Positions 36,001 to 59,329 of a stretch of DNA of 64,000 nt are shown here, in pieces. The position numbers and the translations under genes are program-made. Source of the DNA: a virus (lineage: Duplodnaviria; Caudoviricetes); IMG/VR virus record IMGVR_UViG_3300037487_000323, positions 1,387-65,386 of that record. The stretch is one strand, 5' to 3'. The notes under the pieces are model-generated. The model searched no databases. It saw nothing but the letters and a program-made list of their open reading frames with translations, and was not told the origin of the DNA. Numbering within the stretch: position 1 is the stretch's first letter; every line of letters starts with the position of its first letter.

Positions 36001-37211
36001 ATGCTACCGTACTTACTTAATACACCTGTTGTAACACCTGCACCTATTGCAGATAGCCCTTGTTTTAAATGTAGTTTTCCTTCAGGGTCAGCATTTCTAT
36101 AGTCTTCAGCTGTTTGAGCTGCAGTTAACCCACCCTCAGCAGCACCCAATGCAGTTGATGCTCCTACGCCTAAACCTTTAAGCCCTGAAGCTACTGCACC
36201 TATACCCATCATAGCAGGGAGGGTTTTTAATACTTCACCGCCAACTGCATTAGGAGCAGTCATAAGGGTTTTAAGGTGATCGGCTACCCCCTCGGCATCT
36301 TGCCATACTTTTTGTTCTGCTTTATATTCAGGTGAATACCCCTCCTCTACCTTCTTCTGCATGTTATTAACATTAAGCCCGTGCTCAGAAAGATATTTTC
36401 CAGACTCTCCTCCAGAAACTAGATCACTAAGCCCAATCGCTGCTTTTGGAATTTCTAAAACCCCCTGTCCTACAGCTTTACCTGTATCCCCAAACCCTAG
36501 TATAGATTCACCTACACCTTGTATAAACTTACCGGGGCCATACTTAGCTTTGTAGTTTAGAGTATCTTGTTGTTCTTGAGTAAGAGCTTTATCCCCTTGC
36601 GGTTGTGTCTCTACAGGCTGGGCAGACTGCACCTTTACAGGTTCAGGCGTAAGCCCATCTTTTGCCATTCTGTCTTCATACTCTGCTCTAAACATACTAG
36701 CTTCTTCTGGAGTATAGCTAAGTTCAGATTTAGCACTAGAGGCTGAAGCTTCTTGAGGTTGTGGCTCTACTCCTTTAGCTTTCATCTTACCTTCATACTC
36801 AGCCCTGAACATACGAGCTTCTTCTGGGGTATAGCCTACGTCTTCTTGTTCGTTCTTAATACCTAACTGCTTATTAAACTTTTCTATGTAGTGTTCAGTT
36901 TCTTTATAAGGAGGGATACCATTGTGTTTATCTACCGCACCCGCACCTGCATTATAAGCAGCAGCAGTTAAATCTAAGTCCCCTGAGTATTTATTAAATA
37001 AGGCTTGTAGTAAATCTACCCCTACGCGGTCAAACTCTGCTACAGAGTTATTTTTTGCAGGTGTAATCCCATACCCCGGCTTATAGGCTGTAGCAGGCAT
37101 GACCTGCATTGAACCCCTAGCTCCTTTACTAGAGACTGCATTTTGTTTACCTGCTGACTCAATATACCTAATAGCGTCAACTGCTTCTGGGGGAATAGTA
37201 TACTTAGCCAC
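30081..37211 (-). CDS. giant internal virion (ejection) polyvalent protein: lytic transglycosylase, zincin-like domain, LPD38-like C-terminus
   Basis: IESAG/GARGSMQVMP/AAYNAG transglycosylase motifs; LSHEMGH...EWFAD; PVEEVKA repeats. Confidence 0.85.
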   Translation of the reverse strand: MAKYTIPPEAVDAIRYIESAGKQNAVSSKGARGSMQVMPATAYKPGYGITPAKNNSVAEFDRVGVDLLQALFNKYSGDLDLTAAAYNAGAGAVDKHNGIPPYKETEHYIEKFNKQLGIKNEQEDVGYTPEEARMFRAEYEGKMKAKGVEPQPQEASASSAKSELSYTPEEASMFRAEYEDRMAKDGLTPEPVKVQSAQPVETQPQGDKALTQEQQDTLNYKAKYGPGKFIQGVGESILGFGDTGKAVGQGVLEIPKAAIGLSDLVSGGESGKYLSEHGLNVNNMQKKVEEGYSPEYKAEQKVWQDAEGVADHLKTLMTAPNAVGGEVLKTLPAMMGIGAVASGLKGLGVGASTALGAAEGGLTAAQTAEDYRNADPEGKLHLKQGLSAIGAGVTTGVLSKYGSILTEKLGGIDPDTLFVGGLRRALETPVQADIGAIRRVLTSMLGEGVEEASQSAVERIWNNVATDNPKGLLDGVPNDAIKGGMLGSLVGGGSAIVAPSDQSGETLTKKGEESLAKQKAIELENIELAKSGIIDSWGVKRTNSKSGKESKLHRTMLDQDFNTAEGLDNIEEAYNESKYAGLNTKKTAQFEKNLAELRARLPEQEQSTEEQAPVEEVKAPVVEVKAPVEEVKAPVVAQARDRELKSAEVSNQLFNAVVNLQEGYHQAQEEDAMYGQSKTMPRVKKQFNKMFSGLLSAKEKKALYEHWFEEGNLGSGDFTNNEYFDLAHTNLMNRVNPPVKAPVIEEVKAPIVEPTTTTTPAAKAPRVKKVKAEVAPVEEVKAPKVKKVKAEVAPVEEEVKAPVEEVKAPVVKEVKSSEPIQIDEAKVTAYDSALERASVLAEGGSKGAARPFMKSLVAQGLISAAQLKKYDNDAPLTELMQAVNTDLQTGRETTLTTPVTPTKLIPHTVFGAKTTKATPIKEKGLTGVERRQQAADVLRANIEAKKAEIERLAEEKRAVAREIRRLNEQAQNKPTITGKAAPTLADLNAKVIAARKLDAAITAELKGVRESHPEDIISEQGEQDVRVHELLAEKEAQTLLKKTKDLAKAQAKENAARKKEEKAAAKVEADRIAAEHAAAEQVAKEKREIAAKKRAEAKAKKAAAVKEVKVKKEIVKPKVENPPQWAQNAAKMKGGTIVYVKGNTALVKGSSVVSGAPVFMGATDTSITSLDIERYTGELFSVEEKAELVKAKKEWLSADTALHEANPNGPFSSGETTAFSDQVPDSIRGVINEWKKMLGISERIYITTLADAATSDFHGPFATVASHQGLNLEQGSARKLANGDYVIAYTPNKLSYTLEILSHEMGHVLEKTMYESASPEVKAAIDADYKTWLTSTKGKTAREHIDSLRARSTAKATKVSEGMLSDKLTSYWSSKSEWFADQVARWATTSDKPLSVVEKFFQRLGQALKRFFLQNRDFLPTQTMHTWLNSLEGTVFTPESGNTGAFSAENDDIRYSLPLESAESAQYTQDEKAKRVTPTKKSLLESIWGTSEKGTSVLPKTLDLIETYVMRENARFVNQIRRNMRAQGISMKDIEKVIVEVESSQAAHELFLAEQASHIGYIKYRDDIGKFSIEASKHNIDSLKQSLVDIAKVHTDTEGKVRERFNKLMVARRMLEIFDIVKGYEADLASMPDTTPAEKRARSYFKNNVLKPEIAKTQGITEVQANAIVGDARTTTPEFFAPNGPIDTWNHIRKQMVDLLVSSGRVTKTQANNYMGFVSYVPLNRIMETVDPDAAFESMFNGGHGVVTGTALHAFKGSERAVDVISNIHSFMVNTSVMAMRVQKARMMVDAARAFLPNGEVEQVASGKDGLNVIPIYRSGIKEFYNLKDPLFIPAFKGGETVKSAIIKMVFAPVSKFLRATIVLDPLFTLAQLHDDTIDAMVTSNLRNPVALIPYVTKEFALTFAREGFFTPKAVSRYIPETKARTALKAIGAAGEEFISQSGDKEATYWEAPISDTKSGWWSRLRYNLAHFSSIGDNAIRQAVYARTMAETKNERLASERAFEIINFRRKGASAGITAARQSVAFFGAYLQVTNIALRTLNGTGIAPIERKRALATLVSTGVQFAAFSLLYNMLAGTDDDDDISNKDKDTKLYIFGTKSDVALPIRPSINTLPIVITRYIYDSLVKENSNTPRDTKIAIQAAVIASLGNFNPLNINAIKPLYDVITDKNSLTGKPILGSELLPLDAAQQYNPDTTSNLGKWVGEHLGLSGIRFDYLVKGYSGFLGTFILSTTDLAKEKYFGGNQHAERTTKENVRLVPGAGKFLSEKKQSALREILANWKEGVEGVYGTYKRMLITDPAHAEDYRVKHLPMMQAQGAITSIEKSLGKVRKEVTRTHADETLSARRKAERLRSLDQQEKNILSEVRRLNRDTFYPR

Positions 37212-43792: not shown

Positions 43793-45709
43793 CTAGCGTT
43801 TTCCGTCAGATTTGAGGTCAATTCTAGGTTTACCTAACTGCCAAGCAACACCCAATGCATCAGACTCTATTCTAAAGCTCATCTGTCTACCACGTAGTCT
43901 AGTGTAAACCTGCCCTGTAAATGTCTGGACAATATACACACTTGAGTTGGGTGGGTAAGGTAGAGCATAGTTATCAGCACTAGTTACTATTGGAGCATCT
44001 GCACTACCATAGGGCGCACCTGCGTTTTCTCTAGGCACAACAGTCATAGTTACGTATGGGTTATTGACATCAGAGCCATTAAAGTTTATATCAGGCAATA
44101 TGCGCCACACAAAACCAAAGTTCTGCCCGTCTTCAATATCAAAGTCAGATGATTGCACGTAAGCTGCAATAGGTACGGGGGTTAAACCAGACACATCATC
44201 TACAGATGCCTCATGATATAACAACCTATGATCGTAATTAGCAGCAATAGGGTATTGACGTATACCTGAGTCTAACCACGCAGTTCTGCTCATATTGCCC
44301 GAATACCAGACTTGATCTAAGTAGTTAAAGATAACATAGCGGTCAATTACAGACGTATCTTCAGAGCAGTAAAACCACCATATTTCATTGTACCCACTGT
44401 TAGAACCTGAGAATACTTGAAAGGATTGGTCGACATTTAAATCTTCAAACACGTACTGCCATAAGGTGCAGGGTAACGTGTGCACACTACCGTCATAGTA
44501 GTAAAACTTATCTATACCCATCCAGTAAGTAGCATTGTTTACTGTAGTAACCGCATTAGGCGAAATTATGGATATGTTATCCATTAACACCTGAAAACTA
44601 AATACGTAGGGTGGGCCTAAATACTGCATGGAGTATAGAGCTGCATCAGTCCATATTAAATTTTCTTGCCGTGTTACTTGGGAGGCCACAATGTAAGAGC
44701 CGTGTGTAAGCCTAAACTCACCTGACTGATTTGTTATAGAGGGTACCCATTGATACTGATTATTTTGATCTGACCAACGCACAAGCATAGGGTCAAATGT
44801 ACTGGCAGGTGTTCCAGAAATATAAGGGTTAGCACCAAAAGCAATTACAAACCTTTGTATAGAAGATGCCATAATTTGATTGGTTGTCGTAGGCACATAC
44901 GTTCCGTCATACCCAGCAGCTGTTGCTAAAGAAGCAAGGGTTTGTGCCCTAGTAGTTACACCACCAGAATCAGGCCAGTAATAAATACCTCCACCACGAG
45001 GCGCTATTATAAGGTCTTGCCCGTAGTTGTCATTACTCCATAGGCGTAACTGTGTTCCAACAGTATTAATAACACCTGTTCCCCAGCCTCCACGACCCCA
45101 GCCTCCAGCACCCCAACCTACGCCAGAACTGTAAACATCAAGCCCTGTGGTAATTTGAAACGCTGCGGATATTGCAACGCCACCCCCAGCAGCCACTGTT
45201 GATGTTGCTAGGGTAGGGACGGTTATTGTAAATGTATTGGCTGTTAAATATGTTATTTGATATTCGGCATTTAAAGTAGGGGCAGTAATACCACCAACAG
45301 CCACAGCACCTGAGAAGGTGACAAAGTCATTTTGTATTGCACCATGCGCAACGATAGTTACCGTGACTACATTTGAGTTTATTAAAGTTGCAAAGCAGTT
45401 ATTAGTGGCGGGGGCTACGAGTGTGGTTCTGATAGGGGTAATGTCATAATAAAGGCCACCCTTTTCAATATAGTATTTTAACTCAGTGCCTAAACTTACA
45501 TAGTTAGTCCCGTCTAAATCTATCCAGTTCCACATGGCTCTAACTAAACCTAAGAAAGTACTGTTAGATAACCGCACCCAACCCCCTATCTTTTCAGGGT
45601 TTCCTGATCGAAAGCGTATCTTATCCCCATCGTAATACCCGCCTTCATTACCATAATTGGTACTTTCGCGGTTAATCCCCGGTGTTAGTATTAACTTCTT
45701 TAAAGCCAT
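43793..45709 (-). CDS. tail nozzle / head-stabilisation protein
   Basis: Start MALKKL at 45709 with GGAG RBS; beta-propeller-like, VRWSDQ motif; tail module position. Confidence 0.65.
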   Translation of the reverse strand: MALKKLILTPGINRESTNYGNEGGYYDGDKIRFRSGNPEKIGGWVRLSNSTFLGLVRAMWNWIDLDGTNYVSLGTELKYYIEKGGLYYDITPIRTTLVAPATNNCFATLINSNVVTVTIVAHGAIQNDFVTFSGAVAVGGITAPTLNAEYQITYLTANTFTITVPTLATSTVAAGGGVAISAAFQITTGLDVYSSGVGWGAGGWGRGGWGTGVINTVGTQLRLWSNDNYGQDLIIAPRGGGIYYWPDSGGVTTRAQTLASLATAAGYDGTYVPTTTNQIMASSIQRFVIAFGANPYISGTPASTFDPMLVRWSDQNNQYQWVPSITNQSGEFRLTHGSYIVASQVTRQENLIWTDAALYSMQYLGPPYVFSFQVLMDNISIISPNAVTTVNNATYWMGIDKFYYYDGSVHTLPCTLWQYVFEDLNVDQSFQVFSGSNSGYNEIWWFYCSEDTSVIDRYVIFNYLDQVWYSGNMSRTAWLDSGIRQYPIAANYDHRLLYHEASVDDVSGLTPVPIAAYVQSSDFDIEDGQNFGFVWRILPDINFNGSDVNNPYVTMTVVPRENAGAPYGSADAPIVTSADNYALPYPPNSSVYIVQTFTGQVYTRLRGRQMSFRIESDALGVAWQLGKPRIDLKSDGKR

Positions 45710-45720
45710 ACAATGTACTC

Positions 45721-45900
45721 CTACCCTAAGTCGCCAGTCAATGTGAATGGGTTGGCATATATTGTTACATTCTGTGTAGGCGCAAGCATAGGTGCTCCAC
45801 ATGACCCACACACATCAGAGCTAACATCTTCATCTGACAAACTAACATCACATATACTGCAGAACAACTCAATTAAGTGTGTATTATCTATTGCGCTCAT
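45721..45900 (-). CDS. small zinc-ribbon protein (59 aa)
   Basis: CSIC...CGSC; ATGA-coupled to the fibre gene. Confidence 0.6.
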   Translation of the reverse strand: MSAIDNTHLIELFCSICDVSLSDEDVSSDVCGSCGAPMLAPTQNVTIYANPFTLTGDLG

Positions 45901-47364: not shown

Positions 47365-47811
47365 TTAACTTAGGTATAGTTTTTGTTCGGCCTTGCGTCT
47401 ACGTGATAATCCTGCAGAGACAGTACCCATAGCTTTGTTCCATCTTAAGAATTGTGCGCTAGTTTCTTCATTGGGCGCGCCCTTATTTATTTCTTTAACC
47501 AAGGTAGATGATGCAAAGTTTCCTTGACCTATGTTATAACACAAACAGACGCAAGCATCAAATTGATTCTGTGTCAAGGGAACATTAATTGCTTTATCCA
47601 CAGTCTGTTCGTATTTATGCAGGGTATCATGGAATAGTTCTAAGGCTGTTGCTTCAGATATGGACACATCACACAGCTTTACTTTCCTACCATCAGCATA
47701 TAATGTAGAGCCAAACCCTATGGTTGGGACCCCCGCACTGCAAAGATAAGGGGCTTTTCTAAACCCTTCAAACTCTTTAATTAACGCAATACCCGCATCA
47801 CCTATTTTCAT
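47365..47811 (-). CDS. endolysin, GH24 lysozyme
   Basis: IKEFEG..PYLCSAGVPTIGFG, QNQFDA, YNIG, GLSRRRKAE. Confidence 0.93.
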   Translation of the reverse strand: MKIGDAGIALIKEFEGFRKAPYLCSAGVPTIGFGSTLYADGRKVKLCDVSISEATALELFHDTLHKYEQTVDKAINVPLTQNQFDACVCLCYNIGQGNFASSTLVKEINKGAPNEETSAQFLRWNKAMGTVSAGLSRRRKAEQKLYLS

Positions 47812-48245
47812 TTAATCATAGCCTTTATAAATTGGCTGCACAACACAGCATACGCACTTATTTCATCGGCTCTGTAGGCTTCTGACTTGAGAAATTCTGT
47901 AAGTTCTGCTGAAAGCGCCCCATCTGTTTCGGAGGTGTTAATAGTGGCGCTGGTATTGCTATTGGTGCAATTACTACTTTTCCGATGGGTGTCGTACATG
48001 CGCTTAGACTTAAAAGCATTGCGCTGGTCAGTAATAGTTTTAAGAGCTGTAGCATTTGCATCTTCCAGTTGTGTATTAACTTTGTTAGCTTGTTCTGCTA
48101 AGTTAGCATATTGTATTTCTGCTTCTCTATTTTGAGCAGCTATGCCGTCTGACATACGTTGAATTTTATTATGGCTTATGGCAGTAGCTACGCCAAACCC
48201 AGTAGTAAAACCAACTAAGAGTAACCCGACCCATATATAAGGCAT
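47808..48245 (-). CDS. i-spanin (Rz-like)
   Basis: Start MPYIWVG at 48245; N-terminal TM segment plus coiled coil. Confidence 0.75.
   Translation of the reverse strand: MPYIWVGLLLVGFTTGFGVATAISHNKIQRMSDGIAAQNREAEIQYANLAEQANKVNTQLEDANATALKTITDQRNAFKSKRMYDTHRKSSNCTNSNTSATINTSETDGALSAELTEFLKSEAYRADEISAYAVLCSQFIKAMIK
47858..48061 (-). CDS. o-spanin lipoprotein (Rz1-like), embedded
   Basis: Signal peptide with lipobox LSAC, Pro-rich mature part, in another frame inside the i-spanin. Confidence 0.8.
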   Translation of the reverse strand: MQMLQLLKLLLTSAMLLSLSACTTPIGKVVIAPIAIPAPLLTPPKQMGRFQQNLQNFSSQKPTEPMK

Positions 48246-48412
48246 TAGTCTTTCACCATTAAACCTAAGCCACCAGCAACACCGCCAGCAAGCAGTAATA
48301 GTTGATCTATAGATTTGTCTTGGTAGAGTAAAACAGCACCCACAAGAGCCGTAACTACCCAAATTAAACCACGTTGTGTAGATGCTTGACCCCAGTGGAT
48401 GCCTAGTTTCAT
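48245..48412 (-). CDS. holin (55 aa, two hydrophobic segments)
   Basis: MKLGIHWGQASTQRGLIWVVTALVGAVLLY...LLLLAGGVAGGLGLMVKD; coupled at both ends. Confidence 0.65.
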   Translation of the reverse strand: MKLGIHWGQASTQRGLIWVVTALVGAVLLYQDKSIDQLLLLAGGVAGGLGLMVKD

Positions 48413-48990: not shown

Positions 48991-49397
48991 TTAAGTATTT
49001 CCATTATTATGTTTAGCTCCTCTTGGAGCGTTAGGCCTGTTGGGATAATAATATCCGCATTCTTTGGAGCAACAAATACTCTGTTAGTATCTGCGTATCT
49101 GCTTTCTTTTATTCTATCCACCCAAATGATGAACGCACTACCAAACGCAGCTCTTGTTTCATCAGTCGGGCATATAAAATCTGCAATCACGTTGTGACCA
49201 GCAGCAACCACTGTATCACATAAATACCCCATGCGGGTCGCTTGCTCTAACCGATCTTCGGCACTAAAGCCTAAATCCTTATTAACGTGCTGCCTTATCG
49301 CGTCTGCATTAAAGTGTACAGCATTGAGCTTACGGGCTAACGCCTTAGCAAGAGTTGTTTTACCAGACCCCGCAAGCCCCATAATAAGGATTTTCAT
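48987..49397 (-). CDS. cysC: adenylyl-sulfate (APS) kinase-like protein
   Basis: GLAGSGKTT, ADAIR, DLGFSAEDR, FICP. Confidence 0.75.
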   Translation of the reverse strand: MKILIMGLAGSGKTTLAKALARKLNAVHFNADAIRQHVNKDLGFSAEDRLEQATRMGYLCDTVVAAGHNVIADFICPTDETRAAFGSAFIIWVDRIKESRYADTNRVFVAPKNADIIIPTGLTLQEELNIIMEILK

Positions 49398-49398
49398 A

Positions 49399-49785
49399 TT
49401 ACATTAAAACGTCTAATTCGTCATGCGTAGTTGCCGCTTCAATCAATGCTACTCTAGGAGCAACAGCAGCTTGGGCATCAGCAACAGCTTGTGGATCATA
49501 CTTTAAAGGATCACGAGCTTGTTCTTGAATAACTTGTTGGAAAGCAAATGAGGCATTAGAGATCATACCTGACTTACGTTCTTCTACGGTAATATCAAAA
49601 GTATCGTACACGATTTCTACTGGTGTTTTAGTAATATCAAAAACGTGTGCTGTGTAACCTTGACGGTGTGGGATAATGGTAGGTCTTACTTCAATAGCAT
49701 CTTTCCAGCCATCTTCATTAGCGGGTGGTAGAGTGTCCCAGACATCTGTGACTTCGTTGTTTTGTATTCTTACATGTAATGACAT
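49399..49785 (-). CDS. hypothetical protein (possible fibre chaperone)
   Basis: 128 aa directly after an RCC1 gene. Confidence 0.6.
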   Translation of the reverse strand: MSLHVRIQNNEVTDVWDTLPPANEDGWKDAIEVRPTIIPHRQGYTAHVFDITKTPVEIVYDTFDITVEERKSGMISNASFAFQQVIQEQARDPLKYDPQAVADAQAAVAPRVALIEAATTHDELDVLM

Positions 49786-49811
49786 TTTGTTTCCTTTTGT
49801 TTGTGTGTGAA

Positions 49812-51023
49812 TTATGCTGATATGGCTAATGTGCTTTGACGGCCTCCAGCTACCTTAGACCAAGTGGTTAATGAACCTACTTGTTTAGGGCTTGAGTAGT
49901 TAGTTATATTACCTAGACCTAACTGACCTTGAGCATTATATCCCCAAGACCAAAGTATATTATCGGTTTTAGTGGCTATGGTGTGGTAGGACCCTGCAGT
50001 GATGTTAAGCCAAGTGGTTAAACTACCCACTTGTTTAGGGCTTGAGTATCTGGTTGTAACACCTAGTCCTAACTGACCTTGAGCATTATATCCCCAAGAC
50101 CATAATGTACCATCAGTTTTAGTGGCTAAGTTGTGGTAAACCCCTGCAGTGATCTTAAGCCATGTGGTTAATGAACCTACTTGTTTAGGGCTTGAGTAGT
50201 AAGTGGTATTACCTAAACCTAACTGACCATAATAATTATATCCCCAAGACCATAGCGTACCATCGGTTTTAGTGGCTATGGTGTGCGCTTGTCCTCCAGA
50301 TACAATATACCAAGTAGTCAATGAACCAACTTGTTTAGGGCTTGAGTAGCCAGTTATATTACCTAAACCTAACTGACCTTGAGCATTTCTTCCCCAAGAC
50401 CATAGCGTACCATCTGTTTTAGTGGCTATGGTGTGGAAGGACCCTGCAGTGATGTTAAGCCAAGTAGTTAGTGAACCTACTTGTTTAGGGCTTGAGTAGT
50501 TGGTAATATTACCTAGACCTAATTGACCATAAGGATTATATCCCCAAGACCATAGCGTACCATCGGTTTTAGTGGCTATGGTGTGGTAGAACCCTGCAGT
50601 GATGTTAGACCAAGTGGTTAAACTACCCACTTGTTTAGGGCTTGAGTAGTAAGTTCTATTACCTAAACCTAACTGACCATAATAATTATTTCCCCAAGAC
50701 CATAGCGTACCATCGGTTTTAGTGGCTAAGGTGTGGTAGCCCCCTGCAGTGATTTTAAGCCATGTGGTTAAACTGCCAACTTGTTTAGGGCTTGAGTAGT
50801 TGGTAATATTACCTAGACCTAACTGACCATTAGTGTTTAGTCCCCAACTGTATAATCCACCAAAAGGAGCTAAATTACCAGCAGTAGGCCACTGACCTTG
50901 TTTGATCCAATACCCTGCTTGCTCCATTGTCCATATACCCGAAGCTGTACTTGATTGGTATGGGCCACTTGGTGTTACTGGGTTTACAGCAGTTATTACG
51001 CCCGCAGGGTATTTCGTTGACAT
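49812..51023 (-). CDS. RCC1-repeat 7-bladed beta-propeller protein A
   Basis: Seven 50-aa units WSWGxNxxGQLGLG...SSPKQVGSLTTW...HTxATKTDG. Confidence 0.92.
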   Translation of the reverse strand: MSTKYPAGVITAVNPVTPSGPYQSSTASGIWTMEQAGYWIKQGQWPTAGNLAPFGGLYSWGLNTNGQLGLGNITNYSSPKQVGSLTTWLKITAGGYHTLATKTDGTLWSWGNNYYGQLGLGNRTYYSSPKQVGSLTTWSNITAGFYHTIATKTDGTLWSWGYNPYGQLGLGNITNYSSPKQVGSLTTWLNITAGSFHTIATKTDGTLWSWGRNAQGQLGLGNITGYSSPKQVGSLTTWYIVSGGQAHTIATKTDGTLWSWGYNYYGQLGLGNTTYYSSPKQVGSLTTWLKITAGVYHNLATKTDGTLWSWGYNAQGQLGLGVTTRYSSPKQVGSLTTWLNITAGSYHTIATKTDNILWSWGYNAQGQLGLGNITNYSSPKQVGSLTTWSKVAGGRQSTLAISA

Positions 51024-51025
51024 AT

Positions 51026-52777
51026 TTAGCCTTCTAGTCGTTCTTTGATCTTGTTAAATGGGGTTTCCCATGACCCAAACTCGGTCTGGCGAAATAAAGT
51101 CATACTATCATAATAAGGTGTTTTCTCACCATCAAGTGCGTACAGGTAATAGCCCATAATAGGCAGGATAACCCAAGTAGGAATCCCCATAGCCGCTGAT
51201 AAATGGCTTACCGAAGTACAACTACTTATTACTAAATCACAGCTCGCGATTGCTCTTTGAGTGTCTGTCCAACTATCTAATGGAACATTCTTAACCCATA
51301 GCGGAGCATCGCCAGCACCTTCGTCTTTTTGTAAGCTGATAAACTCATACTCTACAGAGGCATCTTTTACAGCCATAAACATCAGCTCGTAAGGAAACTT
51401 CTTGTTGTGATCTTCTTCGTACTTAGAGCTACCCTGCCACCTTAAGCCAATACGTTTCTTGTTACCTGCAATTACAGTAGGTCTATCTATATAGGGCTTA
51501 CCTGAGATGTCATCCATTGTATACCCAAGTGGATAAGGCACTACCATAGCGTAAGTCCAGAAATCATGAAAGATGCCAAACTCTGCACCATGCTGAATAA
51601 CAGCAGACACGCCCTCTATAGTAGAGAACAACTGAGCAAGCATACCTGTACAGGCTACAACCACTTTATTACCACGAGCCACTAAGTCTTTAGCATATCT
51701 TACTTGGTGTATCTGATCGCCTAGACCATGATCGCAGTATAATAAAATAGTACCCTTAGCTTTGCCGTCCCACTCTGGCATCGGTGTGTCAGGTCTTTTA
51801 GAGCCTATAATACCACAGTACCGACCCCTATCCATTTGAGCGTAACCGTTTGCAATATCACCCTGTTTTAGTAAGTACCAGCTACGATTGTACGCAGCTC
51901 TGTGATCTGTAGGGCGTTCTTCGTTAAGCTTTTCTGATAATCTCCAGCCCTCTACAAAGTCACCAATCTTACCTGATGCAACCTGTAAATCTAAATCATC
52001 CAATTCAGGCATGGTGCGAGCATTGTCATTCCAGAACTCAGGCTGACAAAACTGATTATAGTGGTGTTTTAATACGTCTTTAGCATCATCGTTGTGTTGC
52101 TTTTCTAACTTAGTTTTAACATCGTGCATACCTGCATAACCATGCAAGTTTTCATCATCTTCCGATACAGTAGAACCGTCTATTGCATTGAAGTCATAAG
52201 CGAATGGAGCAAGACCTAAGAACTCATGCACTCTTTCTAGTTGACCTTTAGGATCAGCAAGAAGATTATCGTACTCAACGAACAGCATAGATTCAGGATC
52301 GTACTCAAACCCAGACTGTAACGATTGGTATGCGGCTTTTAAATGATCGGCTAATTGACCTGAGTAAATAAACTCATCAAGGTTTTCTGGTTTAGCAACT
52401 CTAACAAAAGAAGCCATACAATCAGGCACTGAACGAACTGTCGCAATCACTTTACAAGGACGATCTAAAACCTGAGTCATAGCCGCCATGATTTGTGGTA
52501 TAGGCCAACCGCGTGATTTATCTATGATGACAGGCTTATCAGTGTCTTCGTAAAAGGCATCAATCATGCCACGCATAGTTTGTGCTAACTTGGTTCTCTT
52601 AGGATCATTCTCATTTAAAAGACCAGCCGAATGCCAAGTATTTGCCAAACCATCAAGTGCATGAACTAACCCTGATGTAGTAGAAACATGAGTCTCTGGG
52701 TTTTGATTAAGAATAGCTGCTAATACTGTACTTCCGCTACGAGGTATGCCTGATAAAAAATGTAAAGTCTTGTTCAT
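51026..52777 (-). CDS. sulfotransferase-TPR-glycosyltransferase (GT9-like) fusion
   Basis: 5'-PSB GIPRSGST, 3'-PB TVRSVPDCMAS; GLGDQI; CDLVISSCTSVSHLSAAMGIPT. Confidence 0.85.
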   Translation of the reverse strand: MNKTLHFLSGIPRSGSTVLAAILNQNPETHVSTTSGLVHALDGLANTWHSAGLLNENDPKRTKLAQTMRGMIDAFYEDTDKPVIIDKSRGWPIPQIMAAMTQVLDRPCKVIATVRSVPDCMASFVRVAKPENLDEFIYSGQLADHLKAAYQSLQSGFEYDPESMLFVEYDNLLADPKGQLERVHEFLGLAPFAYDFNAIDGSTVSEDDENLHGYAGMHDVKTKLEKQHNDDAKDVLKHHYNQFCQPEFWNDNARTMPELDDLDLQVASGKIGDFVEGWRLSEKLNEERPTDHRAAYNRSWYLLKQGDIANGYAQMDRGRYCGIIGSKRPDTPMPEWDGKAKGTILLYCDHGLGDQIHQVRYAKDLVARGNKVVVACTGMLAQLFSTIEGVSAVIQHGAEFGIFHDFWTYAMVVPYPLGYTMDDISGKPYIDRPTVIAGNKKRIGLRWQGSSKYEEDHNKKFPYELMFMAVKDASVEYEFISLQKDEGAGDAPLWVKNVPLDSWTDTQRAIASCDLVISSCTSVSHLSAAMGIPTWVILPIMGYYLYALDGEKTPYYDSMTLFRQTEFGSWETPFNKIKERLEG

Positions 52778-52845
52778 AAGTTTTATAAGTTTAGGGTTTG
52801 GGTTTTATGGGTGCAGTATATATCATAGCTTTTAGGGTTTGGGTT

Positions 52846-53988
52846 TTATGAGATTGCTATAGCTATGGTGTTGTAGCCCATTGCAGCGATTTTAAGCCAT
52901 GTGGTTAATGAACCTACTTGTTTAGGGCTTGAGTAGAAAGTTGTATTACCTAGCCCTAACTGACCTTGAGGATTATATCCCCAAGACCATAACGTACCAT
53001 CAGTCTTGGTGGCTATGGTGTGGGTGTTTCCAGCCCCCAAAGCGTTCCAAGTAGTTAATGAACCTACTTGTTTAGGGCTTGAGTAGTTGGTAATATTACC
53101 TAGACCTAATTGACCATTAGTGTTTAGTCCCCAAGACCATAATGTACCATCAGTCTTGGTGGCTATGGTGTGGTAGAACCCTGCAGTGATCTTAGACCAA
53201 GTAGTTAGTGAACCAACTTGTTTAGGGCTTGAGTAGTTGGTAATATTACCTAGACCTAATTGACCCTTATCGTTAGCACCCCAAGACCATAATGTACCAT
53301 CAGTCTTGGTGGCTATGGTGTGGTAAACCCCTGCAGTGATCTTAGACCAAGTGGTTAGTGAACCTACTTGTTTAGGGCTTGAGTATTTGGTTATATTACC
53401 TAGACCTAATTGACCATAAGGATTATATCCCCAAGACCATAATGTACCATCGGTTTTAGTGGCTATGGTTTGGTAGAACCCTGCAGTGATGTTAAGCCAA
53501 GTGGTTAAACTGCCAACTTGTTTAGGGCTTGAGTAGTTGGTAATATTACCTAGACCTAACTGACCTTGAGTATTTTGCCCCCAAGACCATAATGTACCAT
53601 CTGTTTTAGTGGCTATGGTGTGGAAGAACCCTGCAGTGGTGTTAGACCAAGTGGTTAATGAACCTACTTGTTTAGGGCTTGAGTAGAAAGTTATATTACC
53701 TAGACCTAATTGACCAAAGGGATTATATCCCCAAGACCATAATGTACCATCGGTTTTAGTGGCTATGGTTTGGTAATATCCTGCAGTGATCTTAGACCAA
53801 GTGGTTAAACTACCCACTTGTTTAGGGCTTGAGTAGTACGTTCTATTACCTAGACCTAACTGACCCTGAGAGTTACTCCCCCACGCATAAAGAAAAGGTA
53901 ACCCTGTCCAAGTCCCCGCTGCGACTGCTTGCATTTGTGCTTGTTTTGTCCACATCCCTGAGTATTGGACGTATGGATATGTTGCCAT
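52846..53988 (-). CDS. RCC1-repeat beta-propeller protein B
   Basis: Seven 150-bp units. Confidence 0.92.
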   Translation of the reverse strand: MATYPYVQYSGMWTKQAQMQAVAAGTWTGLPFLYAWGSNSQGQLGLGNRTYYSSPKQVGSLTTWSKITAGYYQTIATKTDGTLWSWGYNPFGQLGLGNITFYSSPKQVGSLTTWSNTTAGFFHTIATKTDGTLWSWGQNTQGQLGLGNITNYSSPKQVGSLTTWLNITAGFYQTIATKTDGTLWSWGYNPYGQLGLGNITKYSSPKQVGSLTTWSKITAGVYHTIATKTDGTLWSWGANDKGQLGLGNITNYSSPKQVGSLTTWSKITAGFYHTIATKTDGTLWSWGLNTNGQLGLGNITNYSSPKQVGSLTTWNALGAGNTHTIATKTDGTLWSWGYNPQGQLGLGNTTFYSSPKQVGSLTTWLKIAAMGYNTIAIAIS

Positions 53989-54000
53989 TGTATTTCTCCT

Positions 54001-55119
54001 TTATCCTAGGGCTATTGTAAATTCATTACCTGTCGCAACAGTAAGCCAAGTAGTTAAACTACCTACCTGTTTAGGGCTTGAGTAGTGGGTAATATTACCT
54101 AGACCTAATTGACCAGAGTTATTTTGACCCCAAGACCATAGCGTACCATCGGTTTTAGTGGCTAGGGTGTGGTAGACCCCTGCAGTGATGTTAAGCCAAG
54201 TGGTTAAACTGCCAACTTGTTTAGGACTTGAGTAGTTAGTTATATTACCTAGACCTAACTGACCGAAATTATTATTCCCCCAAGACCATAGCGTACCATC
54301 GGTTTTAGTGGCTATGGTGTGGTAGCCCCCTGCAGTGATTTTAAGCCAAGTTGTTAAACTGCCAACTTGTTTAGGGCTTGAGTATTTGGTTATATTACCT
54401 AGACCTAATTGACCATAATTATTATATCCCCAAGACCAAAGTGTACCATCTGTTTTAGTGGCTATGGTGTGGCCAATCCCACCTGCAATATTAAGCCAAG
54501 TGGTTAAACTACCCACTTGTTTAGGGCTTGAGTAGTGAGTCCTATTGTTTAGTCCTAACTGACCTTGAGTATTATATCCCCAAGACCAAAGTGTACCATC
54601 TGTTTTAGTGGCTAAGGTGTGGACTTGTCCTCCAGATACATTATACCAAGTAGTCAATGAACCTACTTGTTTAGGGCTAGAGTAGTAAGTTGTATTACCT
54701 AGACCTAATTGACCATAATAATTATTTCCCCAAGACCATAGCGTACCATCAGTCTTGGTTGCTGTGGTGTGTTGGCCCCCTGCAGTGATGTTAAGCCAAG
54801 TTGTTAAACTGCCAACTTGCTTAGGGCTTGAGTACCAAGTTGTATTGCCTAGACCTAATTGACCGTTGTTATTATATCCCCAAGACCATAATGTACCATC
54901 TGTTTTAGTGGCTAAGGTGTGGCCAAACCCTGCAGTTATTTTAGACCAAGTAGTTAATGATCCAACTTGTTTAGGGCTTGAGTATGTAGTTCTATTATTT
55001 AGACCTAATTGACCATAGGGATTATTTCCCCAAGATAACAAATTATATTGGATTGTAGGCGCAACCAAAGGATTAAAGAGTCCGGCTTGGACGGACCCTG
55101 CTAAATATCTTCTTGACAT
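54001..55119 (-). CDS. RCC1-repeat beta-propeller protein C
   Basis: Seven 150-bp units. Confidence 0.92.
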   Translation of the reverse strand: MSRRYLAGSVQAGLFNPLVAPTIQYNLLSWGNNPYGQLGLNNRTTYSSPKQVGSLTTWSKITAGFGHTLATKTDGTLWSWGYNNNGQLGLGNTTWYSSPKQVGSLTTWLNITAGGQHTTATKTDGTLWSWGNNYYGQLGLGNTTYYSSPKQVGSLTTWYNVSGGQVHTLATKTDGTLWSWGYNTQGQLGLNNRTHYSSPKQVGSLTTWLNIAGGIGHTIATKTDGTLWSWGYNNYGQLGLGNITKYSSPKQVGSLTTWLKITAGGYHTIATKTDGTLWSWGNNNFGQLGLGNITNYSSPKQVGSLTTWLNITAGVYHTLATKTDGTLWSWGQNNSGQLGLGNITHYSSPKQVGSLTTWLTVATGNEFTIALG

Positions 55120-55129
55120 TTTAGCCTCC

Positions 55130-55501
55130 TTAAGAGAGTTGTTCCCAACTTGAAGTTACCACTAAGGCAGTAGATGTACCCGCAGTAGCACCAATAGATT
55201 GGTTCTCAAGCAAATAAAATGTTGTTGTCTTGTCAACAATGATAAGCGAGGCGTTAGCAGGCACTGAGATAGTAGACGCAATAGGAAATGCTGTACCACC
55301 AAGAGCCGCTGCGCTATAGATGTTAATAGTGATGTTAGCCGCAGATGCTGAGGTGTTAGCCACTACGATTGAGTTCACTTTGAATGCAATACCGCTTGAT
55401 GCTGCATTAGATGCTAATGAAGTAGCTGAAGTAGTTGTTAAGGAAACTGAAGACATGTTCCCATTAATTGTTGTTACGTTGACCAAATTTGGGTTTGCCA
55501 T
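55130..55501 (-). CDS. virion structural protein
   Basis: 123 aa beta-rich, MANPNLVNV. Confidence 0.65.
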   Translation of the reverse strand: MANPNLVNVTTINGNMSSVSLTTTSATSLASNAASSGIAFKVNSIVVANTSASAANITINIYSAAALGGTAFPIASTISVPANASLIIVDKTTTFYLLENQSIGATAGTSTALVVTSSWEQLS

Positions 55502-55510
55502 TAGTGTTCC

Positions 55511-56071
55511 TTAAGAGCCAAAGATAAGAGAGTATGCAATAGATTGTCCTTTAGAGACTCCACTAGCTGCTGGGGTAGAAGATACCCATGTTGTGCCGTT
55601 TGATGTAAGTATGTTACCTGAAGCACCAACAGCTGATAAATTTGTACCACCGTTTGCAACTGGCAAGATACCAGATACACCTGTAGTTAATGGTAGACCT
55701 GTTACATTAGTTGCAACAAAAGCTGCAGGTGTACCCAGACCGATAACATTACCCGACACATCTAAGTTAACAGACTTACCTGCAGGGTAGGTACAAAACA
55801 CATCTTTAGTGCCTGTTGTAAACGCAACAGCTGCGCCACCATTACTGGAGGTTAATACTGTAGTTCTAGTTAAAAGCCCGGCACTAACTGTACCTATACC
55901 CACTTCCCATTCGGCTGTACCTGAGTTAGTTACACCGTAGTAAGTTGTATTAGTGTTACCTATTGCTGCTGAAAACCCTTGATACCCGCTTACTGCGCCT
56001 GTAAGTACAAGTGCGCCAGTACCTATAGATGTACTTACTTCCCGAACTCTATCTGCTAATACTAATGCCAT
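55511..56071 (-). CDS. tail fibre-associated protein
   Basis: MALVLADRVRE...WEVGIGT; LPVANGGT and GNILTSNGT fibre motifs. Confidence 0.65.
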   Translation of the reverse strand: MALVLADRVREVSTSIGTGALVLTGAVSGYQGFSAAIGNTNTTYYGVTNSGTAEWEVGIGTVSAGLLTRTTVLTSSNGGAAVAFTTGTKDVFCTYPAGKSVNLDVSGNVIGLGTPAAFVATNVTGLPLTTGVSGILPVANGGTNLSAVGASGNILTSNGTTWVSSTPAASGVSKGQSIAYSLIFGS

Positions 56072-56562: not shown

Positions 56563-57198
56563 TTAGGCAACAGGCAATCTAACTTGCCCATCACGATATG
56601 CTGTTCTGCGTTCTTTTCCATCACCCATTAACTTAAGCAACATCAAAGATTCTTGATACTTTTGTTCATAGTTAGCAATAATATCTGCTTCACCTTTTTG
56701 GTATACAGCGGCTTCTCGCAAAGAACCATACAGCAATACCGACTCAAAGTTATCCCCGACCCATGATGTACCAGCAGTCACAATAGACTCAGGGTAGTAA
56801 TACTCGTGTAACTCAACTTGATATACTTGATCTGGTGTAGGGCCAAAGATTATCGTATCTGGATCAAACTGACCAAAGTATTTAGGTATCCCCTGACTAT
56901 TAGGGTTAGGGTAAGCTTCTCGGATAAAGTTAACATCCTTATCTATTAAAAACTGCTGAGCACCTGTATTGTCAACAACAGCTAACGAGAAGGTTGCTAG
57001 GTAGTCATCAGGAAGCTGTAAATACTTTAACCCAGCGATAGTATTACTTAAGACGTTTCTACGTATAGCGGGTAGCTGAACAGTATTATAAATACGTTCT
57101 TCTGCAATATTAACAAAGTTAGGTATGTTAGCTACAAAAGACTGTTCTGTAGTTTCTGCGTAGTTACATATTGCTGTGACCAGAGCCGCGTAATTCAT
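56563..57198 (-). CDS. head-tail adaptor / tail tubular-like protein
   Basis: FVNIAEERI, LPDDYL, GPTPD, LLYGSL. Confidence 0.65.
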   Translation of the reverse strand: MNYAALVTAICNYAETTEQSFVANIPNFVNIAEERIYNTVQLPAIRRNVLSNTIAGLKYLQLPDDYLATFSLAVVDNTGAQQFLIDKDVNFIREAYPNPNSQGIPKYFGQFDPDTIIFGPTPDQVYQVELHEYYYPESIVTAGTSWVGDNFESVLLYGSLREAAVYQKGEADIIANYEQKYQESLMLLKLMGDGKERRTAYRDGQVRLPVA

Positions 57199-57756: not shown

Positions 57757-58475
57757 TAGTTAAATGACATTCTAGGCACCATACGTACAGGCGCTTTTTC
57801 ACGGTTTTCATCGGCTGCTAATTGAAACTGCTCGTCATATACCATCTTTAATCCAGCAATTCTTTGCACGTCTACATTAGGGAGCTTCATAGCCAAATAA
57901 TAAGACAACCCTGCAATTAGTGCGGGTAAGAATAAATAGGGTATGTCTTGTGTATTAACACCGTCACCAGCATCTTGCATTCTCCTTAAGCGCCAGTAGA
58001 CAAACGTGTACTGGTTGCCCGGAGACTGTGGCGTAGGCCATACATTAATTGTTGGGTAGGTTATGCCTGTGGGTGTTAACGCACCTGATTGTCTGTTTAT
58101 CCAAACTTGGATAGGTTTACCTAACGCAGTCTTATTAGGGATTGTCGAATAAGTAGAACCTGAAATTCTTGATATTGTTATATCGGATTGATTCTGGCCT
58201 GTGCCTGTACGTATTACTTGGTCTAGTAAATCAACAGTATCTATGGGTAGATTGTATACAGCTTGTCCTGTAACCATAGGGATTGCGCCCTCTTCCACAG
58301 TCCATAAATTTATACCCCTATTGCCCCATTCTGCAAAAAGAAGATTAAGAGATCGTCTAGCTGTTTTAAAATCATAACCACTACGTAGTTCTGTACCATT
58401 CCCGCAGCGCTCAAAACTTTCTTCGATTATATCTGCCAAATCCATATTGAACAAAGCTGTACCTGTAGTGGTCAT
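57756..58475 (-). CDS. head-tail connector-like protein
   Basis: ARRSLNLLFAEWGNRGINLW, VWPTP, GLSYYLA. Confidence 0.65.
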   Translation of the reverse strand: MTTTGTALFNMDLADIIEESFERCGNGTELRSGYDFKTARRSLNLLFAEWGNRGINLWTVEEGAIPMVTGQAVYNLPIDTVDLLDQVIRTGTGQNQSDITISRISGSTYSTIPNKTALGKPIQVWINRQSGALTPTGITYPTINVWPTPQSPGNQYTFVYWRLRRMQDAGDGVNTQDIPYLFLPALIAGLSYYLAMKLPNVDVQRIAGLKMVYDEQFQLAADENREKAPVRMVPRMSFN

Positions 58476-59329
58476 TTCTTTTCCTTACAGTTATCTAAAT
58501 GCCAACGTTTCATATTACTTAAAATACCTTGTTTGTTACAATGTGGACAATCTATTAGCGGTCTATTTTTATGCGCATTACGCATTTTTTCTAAAGCTTC
58601 TGCAGAATGTTTTTTACCATAATAGGGGTTATTTACACCCGTTGCTATTTCCGATAATTTTTGTTTTTCTTTATCTGATCTAAGTTTACCATACATTGGG
58701 TTTTTAACCCCTAGCATTCTTTTTGACAAAACACTAGAATTTAATTTTGCACGGTATGCTATTTTTTCATTCTTGGTTAAACCTTGCATAGGTTCTCGTA
58801 ATTCTTCTGGAAGATTCAATATGTATTTTATATCGTATCTGCTTTTACGTTCTTCTTTTGACATCCCCGTTTGCCTTTCAGGGTATGTTCTACCTATTTG
58901 GGCAATACTAATTTTTAACCGCGTTTCTTCAGATACTACACGCCCTATTTGTCTCGCGCTTTGATTTTCAGATTGTTCTTTGGTTATTTTTCTACCTTTA
59001 GAACTCTTAGAGATTTTTTCTCTAACTTCAGCTGTTGGTGAGCCTAGCCCACCCCCTCCGGCACACATATTATATTGAGGGTTTAGATTAGAAATAAATA
59101 ATATTTCTAATGCGTTTAATGCATCTTTATCTCCGGCTCCAGCAACTTCTTCTATCGTAAAACTATCTTTACCATACTTTCTAATTGCCGCACATATAAC
59201 CCAAAGTTTATTACATTTAGCAGAACTTATATGTGATGCCCATCTTGATTTTAAAGATGTTATTGTTTGGCCAATGTAAATATTACCATTTGTTATGTTT
59301 GTTATTTTGTATATTACTCCGTATTTCAT
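58472..59329 (-). CDS. free-standing GIY-YIG homing endonuclease with NUMOD3-like repeats
   Basis: GVIYKITN..NGNIYIGQT, RW..H, NPMYGK/NPYYGKKHS, CPHC. Confidence 0.9.
   Translation of the reverse strand: MKYGVIYKITNITNGNIYIGQTITSLKSRWASHISSAKCNKLWVICAAIRKYGKDSFTIEEVAGAGDKDALNALEILFISNLNPQYNMCAGGGGLGSPTAEVREKISKSSKGRKITKEQSENQSARQIGRVVSEETRLKISIAQIGRTYPERQTGMSKEERKSRYDIKYILNLPEELREPMQGLTKNEKIAYRAKLNSSVLSKRMLGVKNPMYGKLRSDKEKQKLSEIATGVNNPYYGKKHSAEALEKMRNAHKNRPLIDCPHCNKQGILSNMKRWHLDNCKEKK

Follow-up and report, generated by a model that had tools for sequence, protein, structure and literature searches.

Three RCC1-like propeller genes in the tail module of a freshwater phage whose 21 blades appear to evolve in concert

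The host range of phages is set by receptor-binding proteins, which are known to be diversified by modular swapping between phages, by invertible segments or by retroelement mutagenesis. In the diversity-generating retroelements of phages, such as the Mtd type of the Bordetella phage, a few surface residues of a host-binding protein are varied at sites rich in Tyr and Asn. Antigenic variation by segmental gene conversion is known from pilE/pilS, vlsE and msp2, and the repeats of TAL effectors carry two variable residues. In fungi, concerted evolution has been described for the WD-repeats of the het-d/het-e family, both inside single genes and among its ten members, with diversifying selection acting on four residues of each repeat that lie on the interaction surface (PMC1805685). 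Here we describe three genes for RCC1-type beta-propellers, called A, B and C, in the IMG/VR virus record IMGVR_UViG_3300037487_000323 (Duplodnaviria; Caudoviricetes), which is 65,386 bp long and rated 100% complete. The window, that is, the whole stretch of 64,000 nucleotides (nt) that was analysed, covers positions 1387 to 65386 of this record. According to the list of open reading frames (ORFs), four genes lie on its minus strand at 49812-55119, namely C, B, a gene for a protein of 583 amino acids (aa) and A, and no plus-strand ORF of at least 80 aa was present within this interval. The best reading of the locus is that a known evolutionary mode, in which a repeat scaffold evolves in concert and surface residues stay diverse, occurs here in a new setting, the three propellers of a phage tail module.

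The genome contains 21 matches to the Pfam RCC1 repeat, all over the cut-off and none outside these three genes. Each gene carries seven of them, with E values from 1e-82 to 1e-89 and 270-293 bits against a gathering cut-off of 21.7. The motif SSPKQVG is spaced by exactly 50 aa in the six intervals of each gene. Tandem Repeats Finder (TRF) reported a period of 150 with 6.5-6.7 copies and 80-83% matches, the indels being 0% in two arrays and 1% in the middle one, and the codons of all 21 units could be extracted without an indel. Hence, the three sets of seven RCC1 units free of indels that had been read in the initial annotation are borne out by the Pfam repeats and by the codon extraction, and the observation as such exceeds chance by a good margin. 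The 14-nt anchor that was said to recur every 150 bp is exact in 19 of the 21 units, at steps of 150 or 300 nt. In each gene the seven in-register units follow a gene-specific N-terminal segment (lengths in Table 1), and the final unit of each array is 3-4 residues shorter. Across 57 propellers, blade number as counted by the anchor motif was seven in 43 and six in 14, the latter possibly through missed anchors.

When the unit is numbered from LWSWG, no amino-acid change is seen at 25 of its first 40 positions. Positions 6, 8, 9, 19, 39 and 40 carry 6-9 residues each (2.2-2.95 bits), and positions 17 and 33-37 show moderate variability. The focus of variation on three loops, which had been noticed at the outset, was found again at positions 6/8/9, 17/19, 33-37 and 39/40, with up to nine residues each. 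The early remark on loop composition also agrees with the counts, since the seven most variable positions hold Tyr (26%), Asn (13%), Ile (9%), Thr (8%), Phe (8%) and Gln (7%). Statistics on 50-residue blades were made with blades of exactly 50 residues that have another blade after them, each seventh blade and blades with indels being excluded, so that 540 blades were kept, 18 of them from the window. In the 522 blades of the other 63 loci the variability at matching positions follows the profile of the window (Spearman 0.75), and the variable positions contain 16% Asn and 16% Tyr.

The framework DNA had been described as nearly identical, and this does not hold. The units are 68-91% identical in nucleotides, the window blades being mutually about 77-80% identical on average, and the framework is near-invariant as protein only; even Ser28 is written with two unrelated codons. 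In the framework codons of the window blades the proportions of synonymous (pS) and non-synonymous (pN) differences were 0.34 and 0.047, respectively (pN/pS = 0.14). The framework is therefore held by strong purifying selection on the protein, and a synonymous divergence of this size indicates that the blades are not recent copies and that the last homogenisation is old. In the twelve variable codons pS was 0.38 and pN 0.44, and in the six core loop codons pN reached 0.56 and pS 0.43 (pN/pS = 1.3, with saturation).

Regarding the fold, the protein of gene C, the one that was folded, was modelled by AlphaFold2 from an alignment of 25 relatives with a mean predicted local distance difference test (pLDDT) of 91.1 and a predicted template modelling score (pTM) of 0.87. 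The model has 28 strands and its 22 N-terminal residues are disordered. The best Foldseek match was UVR8 (template modelling score, TM, 0.85; root-mean-square deviation 1.5; 33% identity), followed by HERC2, HERC1, RPGR and RCC1, with TM of 0.85-0.89 across the whole set. A seven-bladed RCC1-like propeller (Pfam PF00415 and PF25390) is thus predicted with confidence. In this model the strands lie at unit positions 1-5, 20-25, 31-37 and 41-46. Because the loops of a beta-meander alternate sides, the loop 6-19 and the turn 38-40 would be on one side and the invariant stretches 26-30 and 47-50 on the other.

The assignment of the faces was made from strand topology and from homology to UVR8. In the HMMER alignment to UVR8 (E = 1.6e-63), positions 6, 8 and 9 correspond to W94, D96 and F97, position 19 to D107, and positions 39 and 40 to W233 and R234 and also to W337 and R338; position 39 corresponds as well to residue 285, which is F in the aligned chain, that of the W285F mutant. 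In the UVR8 dimer interface R286, the neighbour of W285, makes salt bridges across monomers with D96 and D107, and R234 and R338 are part of a set with R286 (PMC5091643). As the variable positions align with dimer-interface residues of UVR8, they would share one interaction face. The main variable positions (6, 8, 9, 17 and 19 in the loop between strands S1 and S2, and 39 and 40 in the turn between S3 and S4) would then lie on one face of the propeller. The expectation of the initial annotation that the variable sites share a face agrees with this placement by alignment to UVR8, with positions 33-37 excepted.

Comparison with relatives revealed that the blades lack positional orthology. Against the nearest relative (locus L009), blades at the same position share 65-71% of their nucleotides and blades at other positions 64.5-68.6%, so that the diagonal does not stand out from the off-diagonal values. 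The window blades (77-80% identical to one another) resemble each other more than any of them resembles a blade of the nearest relatives. From 114 framework nucleotides only, a maximum-likelihood tree was computed for 133 blades of 10 genomes. On this tree the genome label required 47 changes against a shuffled mean of 96, and none of 500 shuffles was as low, whereas the label of blade position required 93 changes against 86 in the shuffles and showed no clustering. The 18 blades of the window accounted for three changes, and those of L041 and L011 for one each. Genome-wise clustering is present in the window, L041, L011 and L049 and weaker in L055, L013 and L012 (in L012, 43 of 500 shuffles were as low). 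Within the window, neither the gene label (11 changes vs 10.4) nor the label of position (17 vs 15.2) shows clustering, and no offset in register between the genes gives positional correspondence.

Furthermore, the blades of the window share character states that are almost confined to this genome and yet occur throughout the three genes. Ser28 is found in all 21 window blades and in 123 of the 522 blades elsewhere. Its AGT codon is present in 10 units of the window, across all three genes (the other 11 have TCA), and in 2 of the 123 Ser blades elsewhere; since AGT and TCA are not one change apart, this suggests two origins of Ser28, each spread by conversion. Thr36 occurs in 14 of the 18 window blades vs 6% elsewhere, and the blade type YSSPKQ in 21 of 21, where relatives carry a mixture with RSSPVQ. 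The three N-terminal segments are kept across the relatives and the gene order is unchanged. The three genes, with their distinct N-terminal segments, therefore predate the Ser28, AGT, Thr36 and YSSPKQ states, and these states must have spread between genes. Moreover, the identity from blade to blade within the three proteins (0.81-0.84) is at the top of the 57 propellers compared, the others ranging from 0.50 to 0.80.

The exchange of patches was analysed in the window and in strains of relatives. The pairwise homoplasy index (PHI) test with all informative sites of the window gave p = 0.0005, and 66-68% of the site pairs are incompatible, a share that rises with distance. Two patches singled out in the initial annotation were recovered. 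One is 40 bp long and is shared by 50288-50327 and 54624-54663 (blades A4 and C3) with one mismatch; the other, the LNTN patch, is shared by 50824-50846 and 53111-53133 (blades A1 and B6) with no mismatch. In the relatives, eight of nine close strain pairs have clustered differences (neighbour within 10 nt compared with random placement, p < 0.05). In one such pair, the 15 differences in 1161 nt consist of six within 19 nt, eight within 15 nt and one single difference. Clusters of this kind in close strains indicate that patches are replaced as units. The clusters tested for copies had at least four differences and lay in the repeat part, the non-repeat first 120 nt of the genes being left out; four of 13 had a copy, with one mismatch at most, elsewhere in their own locus, vs 4 of 40 same-register control segments of unchanged blades. 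The proposal that blades exchange sequence thus finds agreement in the PHI and Sawyer tests, the genome-wise clustering, the lack of positional orthology, the shared states and the strain patches. The blades evolve in concert by non-allelic gene conversion, with the diversity of the loops being kept.

Selection on the loops was followed in 24 non-overlapping pairs of relatives at least 95% identical, two pairs with internal gaps being excluded from the totals. At the variable positions 45 changed codons were non-synonymous and 7 synonymous, and in the framework 27 and 54, respectively (Fisher p = 1.3e-9). The framework pN/pS of these pairs (Nei-Gojobori) was 0.16.

From these data a mechanism may be proposed. 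The 21 blades would act as one shared pool across three paralogous genes, in which non-allelic homologous recombination, as short-tract gene conversion within and between genes, would keep the scaffold uniform and would also carry loop-bearing patches from blade to blade. A few positions of one face (6, 8, 9, 17, 19, 39 and 40), rich in Tyr and Asn, would stay diverse, and this face would bind a ligand of the host surface. The propellers would sit at the tail as receptor-binding or adhesin proteins, anchored by their conserved N-terminal segments, a role that is plausible. Taken as a whole, that is, a shared blade pool, concerted evolution, a putative binding face, tail-associated receptor binding and no programmed variation, this reading is considered moderately probable.

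Several observations weigh against it. Concerning recombination, the PHI test with 21 synonymous sites in invariant codons gave p = 0.001 (window of 3) and 0.024 (window of 6), a short-range value flattered by three fully linked sites of one codon, and at long range (window of 10) its significance is lost (p = 0.61). The sum-of-squares statistic of Sawyer (SSCF) gave p = 0.0005, which clustering of fast sites can inflate, and the maximum fragment was not significant (p = 0.20). A candidate donor was found in the fetched locus for only 4 of the 13 patches, with a background of 10%; the remaining patches may derive from other phages or from sequence outside the fetched loci. Of the ten tree genomes, three (L009, L019 and L047) are without any genome-wise clustering, which indicates that homogenisation differs among lineages. 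With respect to the binding face, positions 33-37 sit inside a strand and are not included in the one-face assignment. In the close pairs of relatives, pN/pS was 1.18 for the loop codons (binomial p = 0.32 against 1) and 1.05 for the six core codons (p = 0.49), and the loops could simply be unconstrained. Of the per-codon dN/dS check suggested at the start, the strong contrast between loops and framework is therefore seen, and a loop ratio clearly above one is not. Finally, the neighbourhood also has non-structural genes (APS-kinase-like, methyltransferase and lysozyme), so position alone does not make the propellers tail proteins.

Other explanations of the mosaic were also considered. One blade could have been amplified recently to give the arrays, its copies then diverging in the ordinary way with no ongoing exchange, which is the general model for highly repetitive beta-propellers. 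In fact, highly repetitive RCC1/BLIP-II propellers, a few of them viral, are catalogued as products of repeated amplification in a survey (PMC9218822), and the window blades are near the family consensus. On the other hand, the three-gene layout with distinct N-terminal segments is common to distant relatives, and amplification would need to occur inside three pre-existing genes. The lack of clustering by gene or position and of any offset that matches positions between genes, the growth of site incompatibility with distance and the replaced patches in close strains, some with an intragenomic copy, also speak against this model, which seems quite unlikely. The opposite possibility, raised in the initial annotation, is a diversity generator independent of reverse transcriptase (RT), that is, a dedicated and fast system that continually reshuffles binding loops within the phage population. 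The mosaic patches of the window, the PHI and Sawyer results and the clustered patch differences in close strains would be in line with it. The annotation had also stated that the window has no RT or site-specific recombinase, and this is true for the whole record of 65,386 bp: the search for RT (PF00078) gave no match, with a control search positive in 3 of 14 genomes, and no tyrosine integrase or serine recombinase was detected, control genomes giving matches in each search. A record with no RT, integrase or resolvase argues against such a generator. Contigs from runs of two other studies carry the flanks and array pieces with 0-4 differences and the array pieces are 99-100% identical (no differences at 54656-54858, one at 54389-54536 and 0-1 at 54507-54622), where run X1, the one with no differences, may be the source sample. 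Moreover, the 519 RCC1 ORFs of all fetched loci form 282 cross-locus pairs of at least 90% identity, of which 198 are identical and 45 are at 99.x%, both numbers being upper bounds because some loci are one contig fetched twice. Together with the pS of 0.34 among blades, which makes the last homogenisation old, and a loop pN/pS of about 1, these results speak against the proposed generator, and a system of this kind is judged very unlikely. The data fit an exchange that is a slow evolutionary process by ordinary homologous recombination, not a programmed or rapid system. It could also be argued that the mosaic and the exact three by seven layout are chimeras of short-read metagenome assembly. 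All four public runs yield k-mer contigs (Logan) that end within the arrays, which leaves the blade order without independent confirmation, and many 31-mers are common to several blades. Joints in these contigs have short sides or belong to relatives and were left out of account. Nevertheless, the longest exact repeat in the region has 65 nt and is shorter than ordinary reads, each of the three genes has an unbroken frame and exactly seven blades, dozens of independent contigs of relatives present the same layout with seven blades per gene, and array pieces of up to 203 nt are identical in a run of another study. An assembly artefact is hardly credible.

A different alternative concerns the place where the propellers act. 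They could be proteins that work in or on the infected cell, for instance as binders of host proteins, or substrates or partners of a sulfotransferase-glycosyltransferase that remodels the host surface, instead of virion receptor-binding proteins. The cluster is interleaved with genes for the sulfotransferase fusion, the APS-kinase-like protein and a methyltransferase, and lysis genes are next to it. PHROGs places RCC1 families under nucleotide metabolism, by name only, and the jumbo phage phAPEC6 has eleven RCC1-like proteins that are reported without an assigned role (PMC7247149). Against this, the RCC1 genes are inside the block that runs from the adaptor to the tail genes, in an order kept in most relatives, and weak PHROG matches to 'tail protein' families were obtained (E = 1e-9 to 8e-13). 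In addition, phage receptor-binding proteins usually combine a conserved N-terminal segment with a C-terminal binding domain that varies. Activity outside the virion is thus regarded as rather unlikely, and tail-associated receptor binding is retained as the more probable function.

The enzymes linked with the propellers are perhaps the most intriguing lead. The 583-aa protein matches Pfam Sulfotransfer_3 (E = 1e-14). Its best solved relatives by sequence are tyrosylprotein sulfotransferases (TPSTs), with a weak match (E = 0.01), and against NCBIfam only a weak match to NoeE was obtained. In its AlphaFold2 model (pLDDT 86.2) the top Foldseek hits are TPST2, TPST1 and a tick TPST (E around 2e-6, target TM 0.46-0.53), and carbohydrate sulfotransferases come after them. 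The C-terminal part resembles SPY, the O-GlcNAc transferase (OGT), WaaC and TibC in Foldseek (E = 4e-5 to 1e-4), and the C-terminal half had no match in Pfam and the PDB by sequence. By tblastn against 78 related loci, many of them truncated contigs, the two halves of the gene were found in 60 and 64. The fusion is a constant part of the module, and almost all relatives have it between their RCC1 genes. In the loci fetched with the 583-aa gene, 75 of 77 new loci hold at least one RCC1 ORF; such an ORF is within 400 nt upstream in 70 of the 72 loci with enough sequence, and in 45 of 70 loci one begins no more than 400 nt downstream. The linkage is found whichever of the two genes the search starts from, and in hundreds of contigs. 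As a separate observation, relatives whose 583-aa gene is 78-80% identical to that of the window have propellers at most 70% identical (loci L167-L243), and L009, with an enzyme gene 68% identical, has propellers 74-75% identical to those of the window. Judged by these identities, the propeller genes seem to be uncoupled from the neighbouring 583-aa gene.

The APS-kinase-like gene (APS, adenosine 5'-phosphosulfate) is located two genes downstream of gene A. Its product is over the cut-off of Pfam APS_kinase (E = 1.2e-16, 61.6 bits) and under that of NCBIfam (60.9 bits vs a curated 138.7), where it covers the first half of the profile only. The blades have an invariant Tyr20, Asn16-x-Thr18 in 20 of 21 and Tyr-rich loops. 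The phage might therefore modify its own propellers: the fusion protein would sulfate the loop tyrosines and/or glycosylate Asn-x-Thr, with 3'-phosphoadenosine 5'-phosphosulfate (PAPS) provided through the APS-kinase-like protein. This idea is based on the nearest solved folds, which are tyrosylprotein sulfotransferases and protein glycosyltransferases (SPY, OGT and TibC), and on the two-way linkage, and it is put forward as a speculation that is more probably wrong than right by a wide measure. The acceptor of the enzyme could equally be a glycan of the host surface. If the idea were true, the binding face would be a paratope that is shuffled genetically and also modified after translation, and receptor-binding proteins of such a kind have not been described in phages.

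The positions of the features are displayed in Table 1. The window has a GC content of 41.7%, and the best explanation for the host virus of these genes is a lytic freshwater podovirus of about 65 kb. The SU10-type adaptor is the start of the tail module that contains the RCC1 genes, and these genes are flanked by the adaptor on one side and by tail-collar and tail genes on the other. A tail protein (43793-45811) shares 39% identity with its homologue in phage DSL-LC04 and about 30% with proteins from podoviruses of Pelagibacter, Roseobacter and cyanobacteria. A lysozyme gene (Pfam Phage_lysozyme, E = 3e-42) and an upstream ORF of 184 aa (47365-48362, minus strand) are found within the tail gene block, with the RCC1 cluster on one side and the tail-collar gene on the other, which is an unusual position for lysis genes. 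Two homing-endonuclease-like genes were also observed, one inside the structural module (58472-59329, minus strand; PHROG 314, E = 4e-37) and one of the HNH type in the replication module (15067-16320, plus strand; PHROG 1314, E = 5e-88). Finally, a protein of 2376 aa (30081-37211, minus strand), with an N-terminal part like lysozyme or transglycosylase and some weak similarity to virion RNA polymerase (PHROG 2206, E = 8.5e-8), is probably an ejected internal virion protein.

Table 1. Features of the propeller region, in positions of the window. Counts of loci are from tblastn.
Feature	Position	Strand	Remarks
APS-kinase-like P-loop kinase, 136 aa	48987..49397	-	Pfam APS_kinase; 37 of 78 related loci
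orf128, conserved companion downstream of gene A	49399..49785	-	49 of 78 related loci; no match in Pfam, PHROG or NCBIfam
RCC1 propeller gene A, 403 aa	49812..51023	-	56-aa N-terminal segment, also with the motif of gene B, and 7 blades, 50855 down to 49812
583-aa fusion: PAPS-type sulfotransferase domain, then helical repeats and a GT-B glycosyltransferase-like domain	51026..52777	-	between genes B and A
RCC1 propeller gene B, 380 aa	52846..53988	-	32-aa N-terminal segment with the motif SG[IVM]W[TS]..Q...G.W and 7 blades, 53892 down to 52846
RCC1 propeller gene C, 372 aa	54001..55119	-	26-aa N-terminal segment and 7 blades, array 55041 down to 54001; Pfam RCC1 x7, E 5.6e-89
orf123, conserved, directly upstream of gene C	55130..55501	-	51 of 78 related loci; no match in Pfam, PHROG or NCBIfam
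orf186, Gly/Thr/Ser-rich, 'fibre-like' by composition only	55511..56071	-	29 of 78 loci; no family match, NCBIfam included
SU10-type head-tail adaptor	56563..57198	-	Pfam SU10_adaptor, E 5e-20; PHROG 2941, virion structural protein

Relatives of the propellers were confirmed in 134 of 149 candidate stretches in IMG/VR and in 209 of 229 JGI metagenome contigs, with a best propeller identity of 74-75% among the records open to the search, and the 583-aa gene has at least 551 relatives in IMG/VR. The typical order is SU10-type adaptor, orf149, orf186, orf123, RCC1 of the C type, RCC1 of the B type, the 583-aa gene, RCC1 of the A type and orf128, often followed by the APS-kinase-like gene and a methyltransferase. 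The N-terminal segment of the B type was found by tblastn in 48 of the 78 related loci. Its motif, SG[IVM]W[TS]..Q...G.W, is located at 50939 in gene A and at 53958 in gene B (minus strand), and RCC1 blades come next in 89 of its 91 occurrences; it may be an element for the attachment or the closure of the propeller. The runs that contain the stretch are labelled as lake water, freshwater and sediment metagenomes. One of them, the lake-water run X4, holds a relative that is about 93-95% identical in the flanking genes of 49300-55600, with, for example, 23 differences in 461 nt at 50881-51341 and an insertion of 6 nt at 53979, near the start of gene B; its contigs gave no array sequence that could be used.

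Among cultured phages no propeller was more than 46% identical, a megablast search of the region against 50,697 phage records gave no match, and NCBIfam had nothing for the propeller, orf123, orf128 or orf186. In the literature searched, with supplements and subscription journals outside the search, there was no account of this family of phage propellers, of any exchange between their blades or those of other phage propellers, or of a sulfotransferase/APS-kinase module in a phage. The term 'RCC1' stands for culture-collection strain numbers in PMC12906663 and PMC4611503 and for locus tags in PMC10218006, and not for proteins. Since the module is widespread in metagenomes of lakes and other waters and has no close propeller in culture, it may be a major unstudied class of host recognition in freshwater phages. 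Moreover, with its uniform scaffold and some seven specificity positions in each blade, the propeller would offer protein engineers an attractive model from nature for the design of binders.

The closest known systems resemble this locus in different aspects. The variation at a few surface residues, rich in Tyr and Asn, of a putative host-binding protein is shared with the diversity-generating retroelements. In contrast to them, RT is absent from the genome and there is no distinct template repeat; the variable codons differ here at all three positions and with all bases, not at adenines only. With pilE/pilS, vlsE, msp2 and the TAL effectors the locus shares short patches copied among near-identical units, on an invariant scaffold with few specificity residues. 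Unlike pilE/pilS, vlsE and msp2, it consists of three intact and presumably expressed genes, with no silent cassettes and no sign of a high switching rate.

Concerning the fold, the seven blades are common to UVR8, the RCC1-like domain (RLD) of HERC2, RPGR and RCC1, and the variable positions match residues that build the dimer interface in UVR8. The blades of those proteins are divergent, however, and the proteins of the window lack the tryptophan/arginine motif GWRHT. A function as guanine nucleotide exchange factor or photoreceptor is not implied, and nucleotide exchange or chromatin binding as in RCC1 proper would not be expected of a phage protein. The highly repetitive RCC1/BLIP-II beta-propellers, as far as the available part of the survey describes them (Pereira & Lupas 2022, PMC9218822), also have near-identical RCC1-type blades and a few viral members, and the phage module, its variable face and the enzymes linked with it do not figure there; as opposed to the account of amplification given there, the mixed pool of three genes and the strain patches point to a continuing exchange in the present case.

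The fungal het-d/het-e (nwd) genes, which encode NOD-like receptors (NLRs) with WD40 repeats of high internal conservation, offer a further comparison, that with the closest process described (Paoletti, Saupe & Clave 2007, PMC1805685). There the fold is WD40 in an NLR, and here it is RCC1 in a phage tail module; the number of repeats is variable in the fungal genes and fixed at seven here; and positive selection was shown in the fungus, whereas the loop pN/pS is about 1 in the phage, where no RIP-like (repeat-induced point mutation) mutator is present. On the other hand, in both cases the propeller repeats of several paralogous genes are near-identical and evolve in concert, units being exchanged inside a locus and from one locus to another, and each repeat has a small number of hypervariable positions, which lie on the interaction surface or, in the phage, on the putative one. 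This likeness is one of analogy and not of homology, and it suggests that the logic of the fungal NLR repeat domains is also found in a virus, as a uniform scaffold of 21 blades whose loop patches can be copied from one blade to another.

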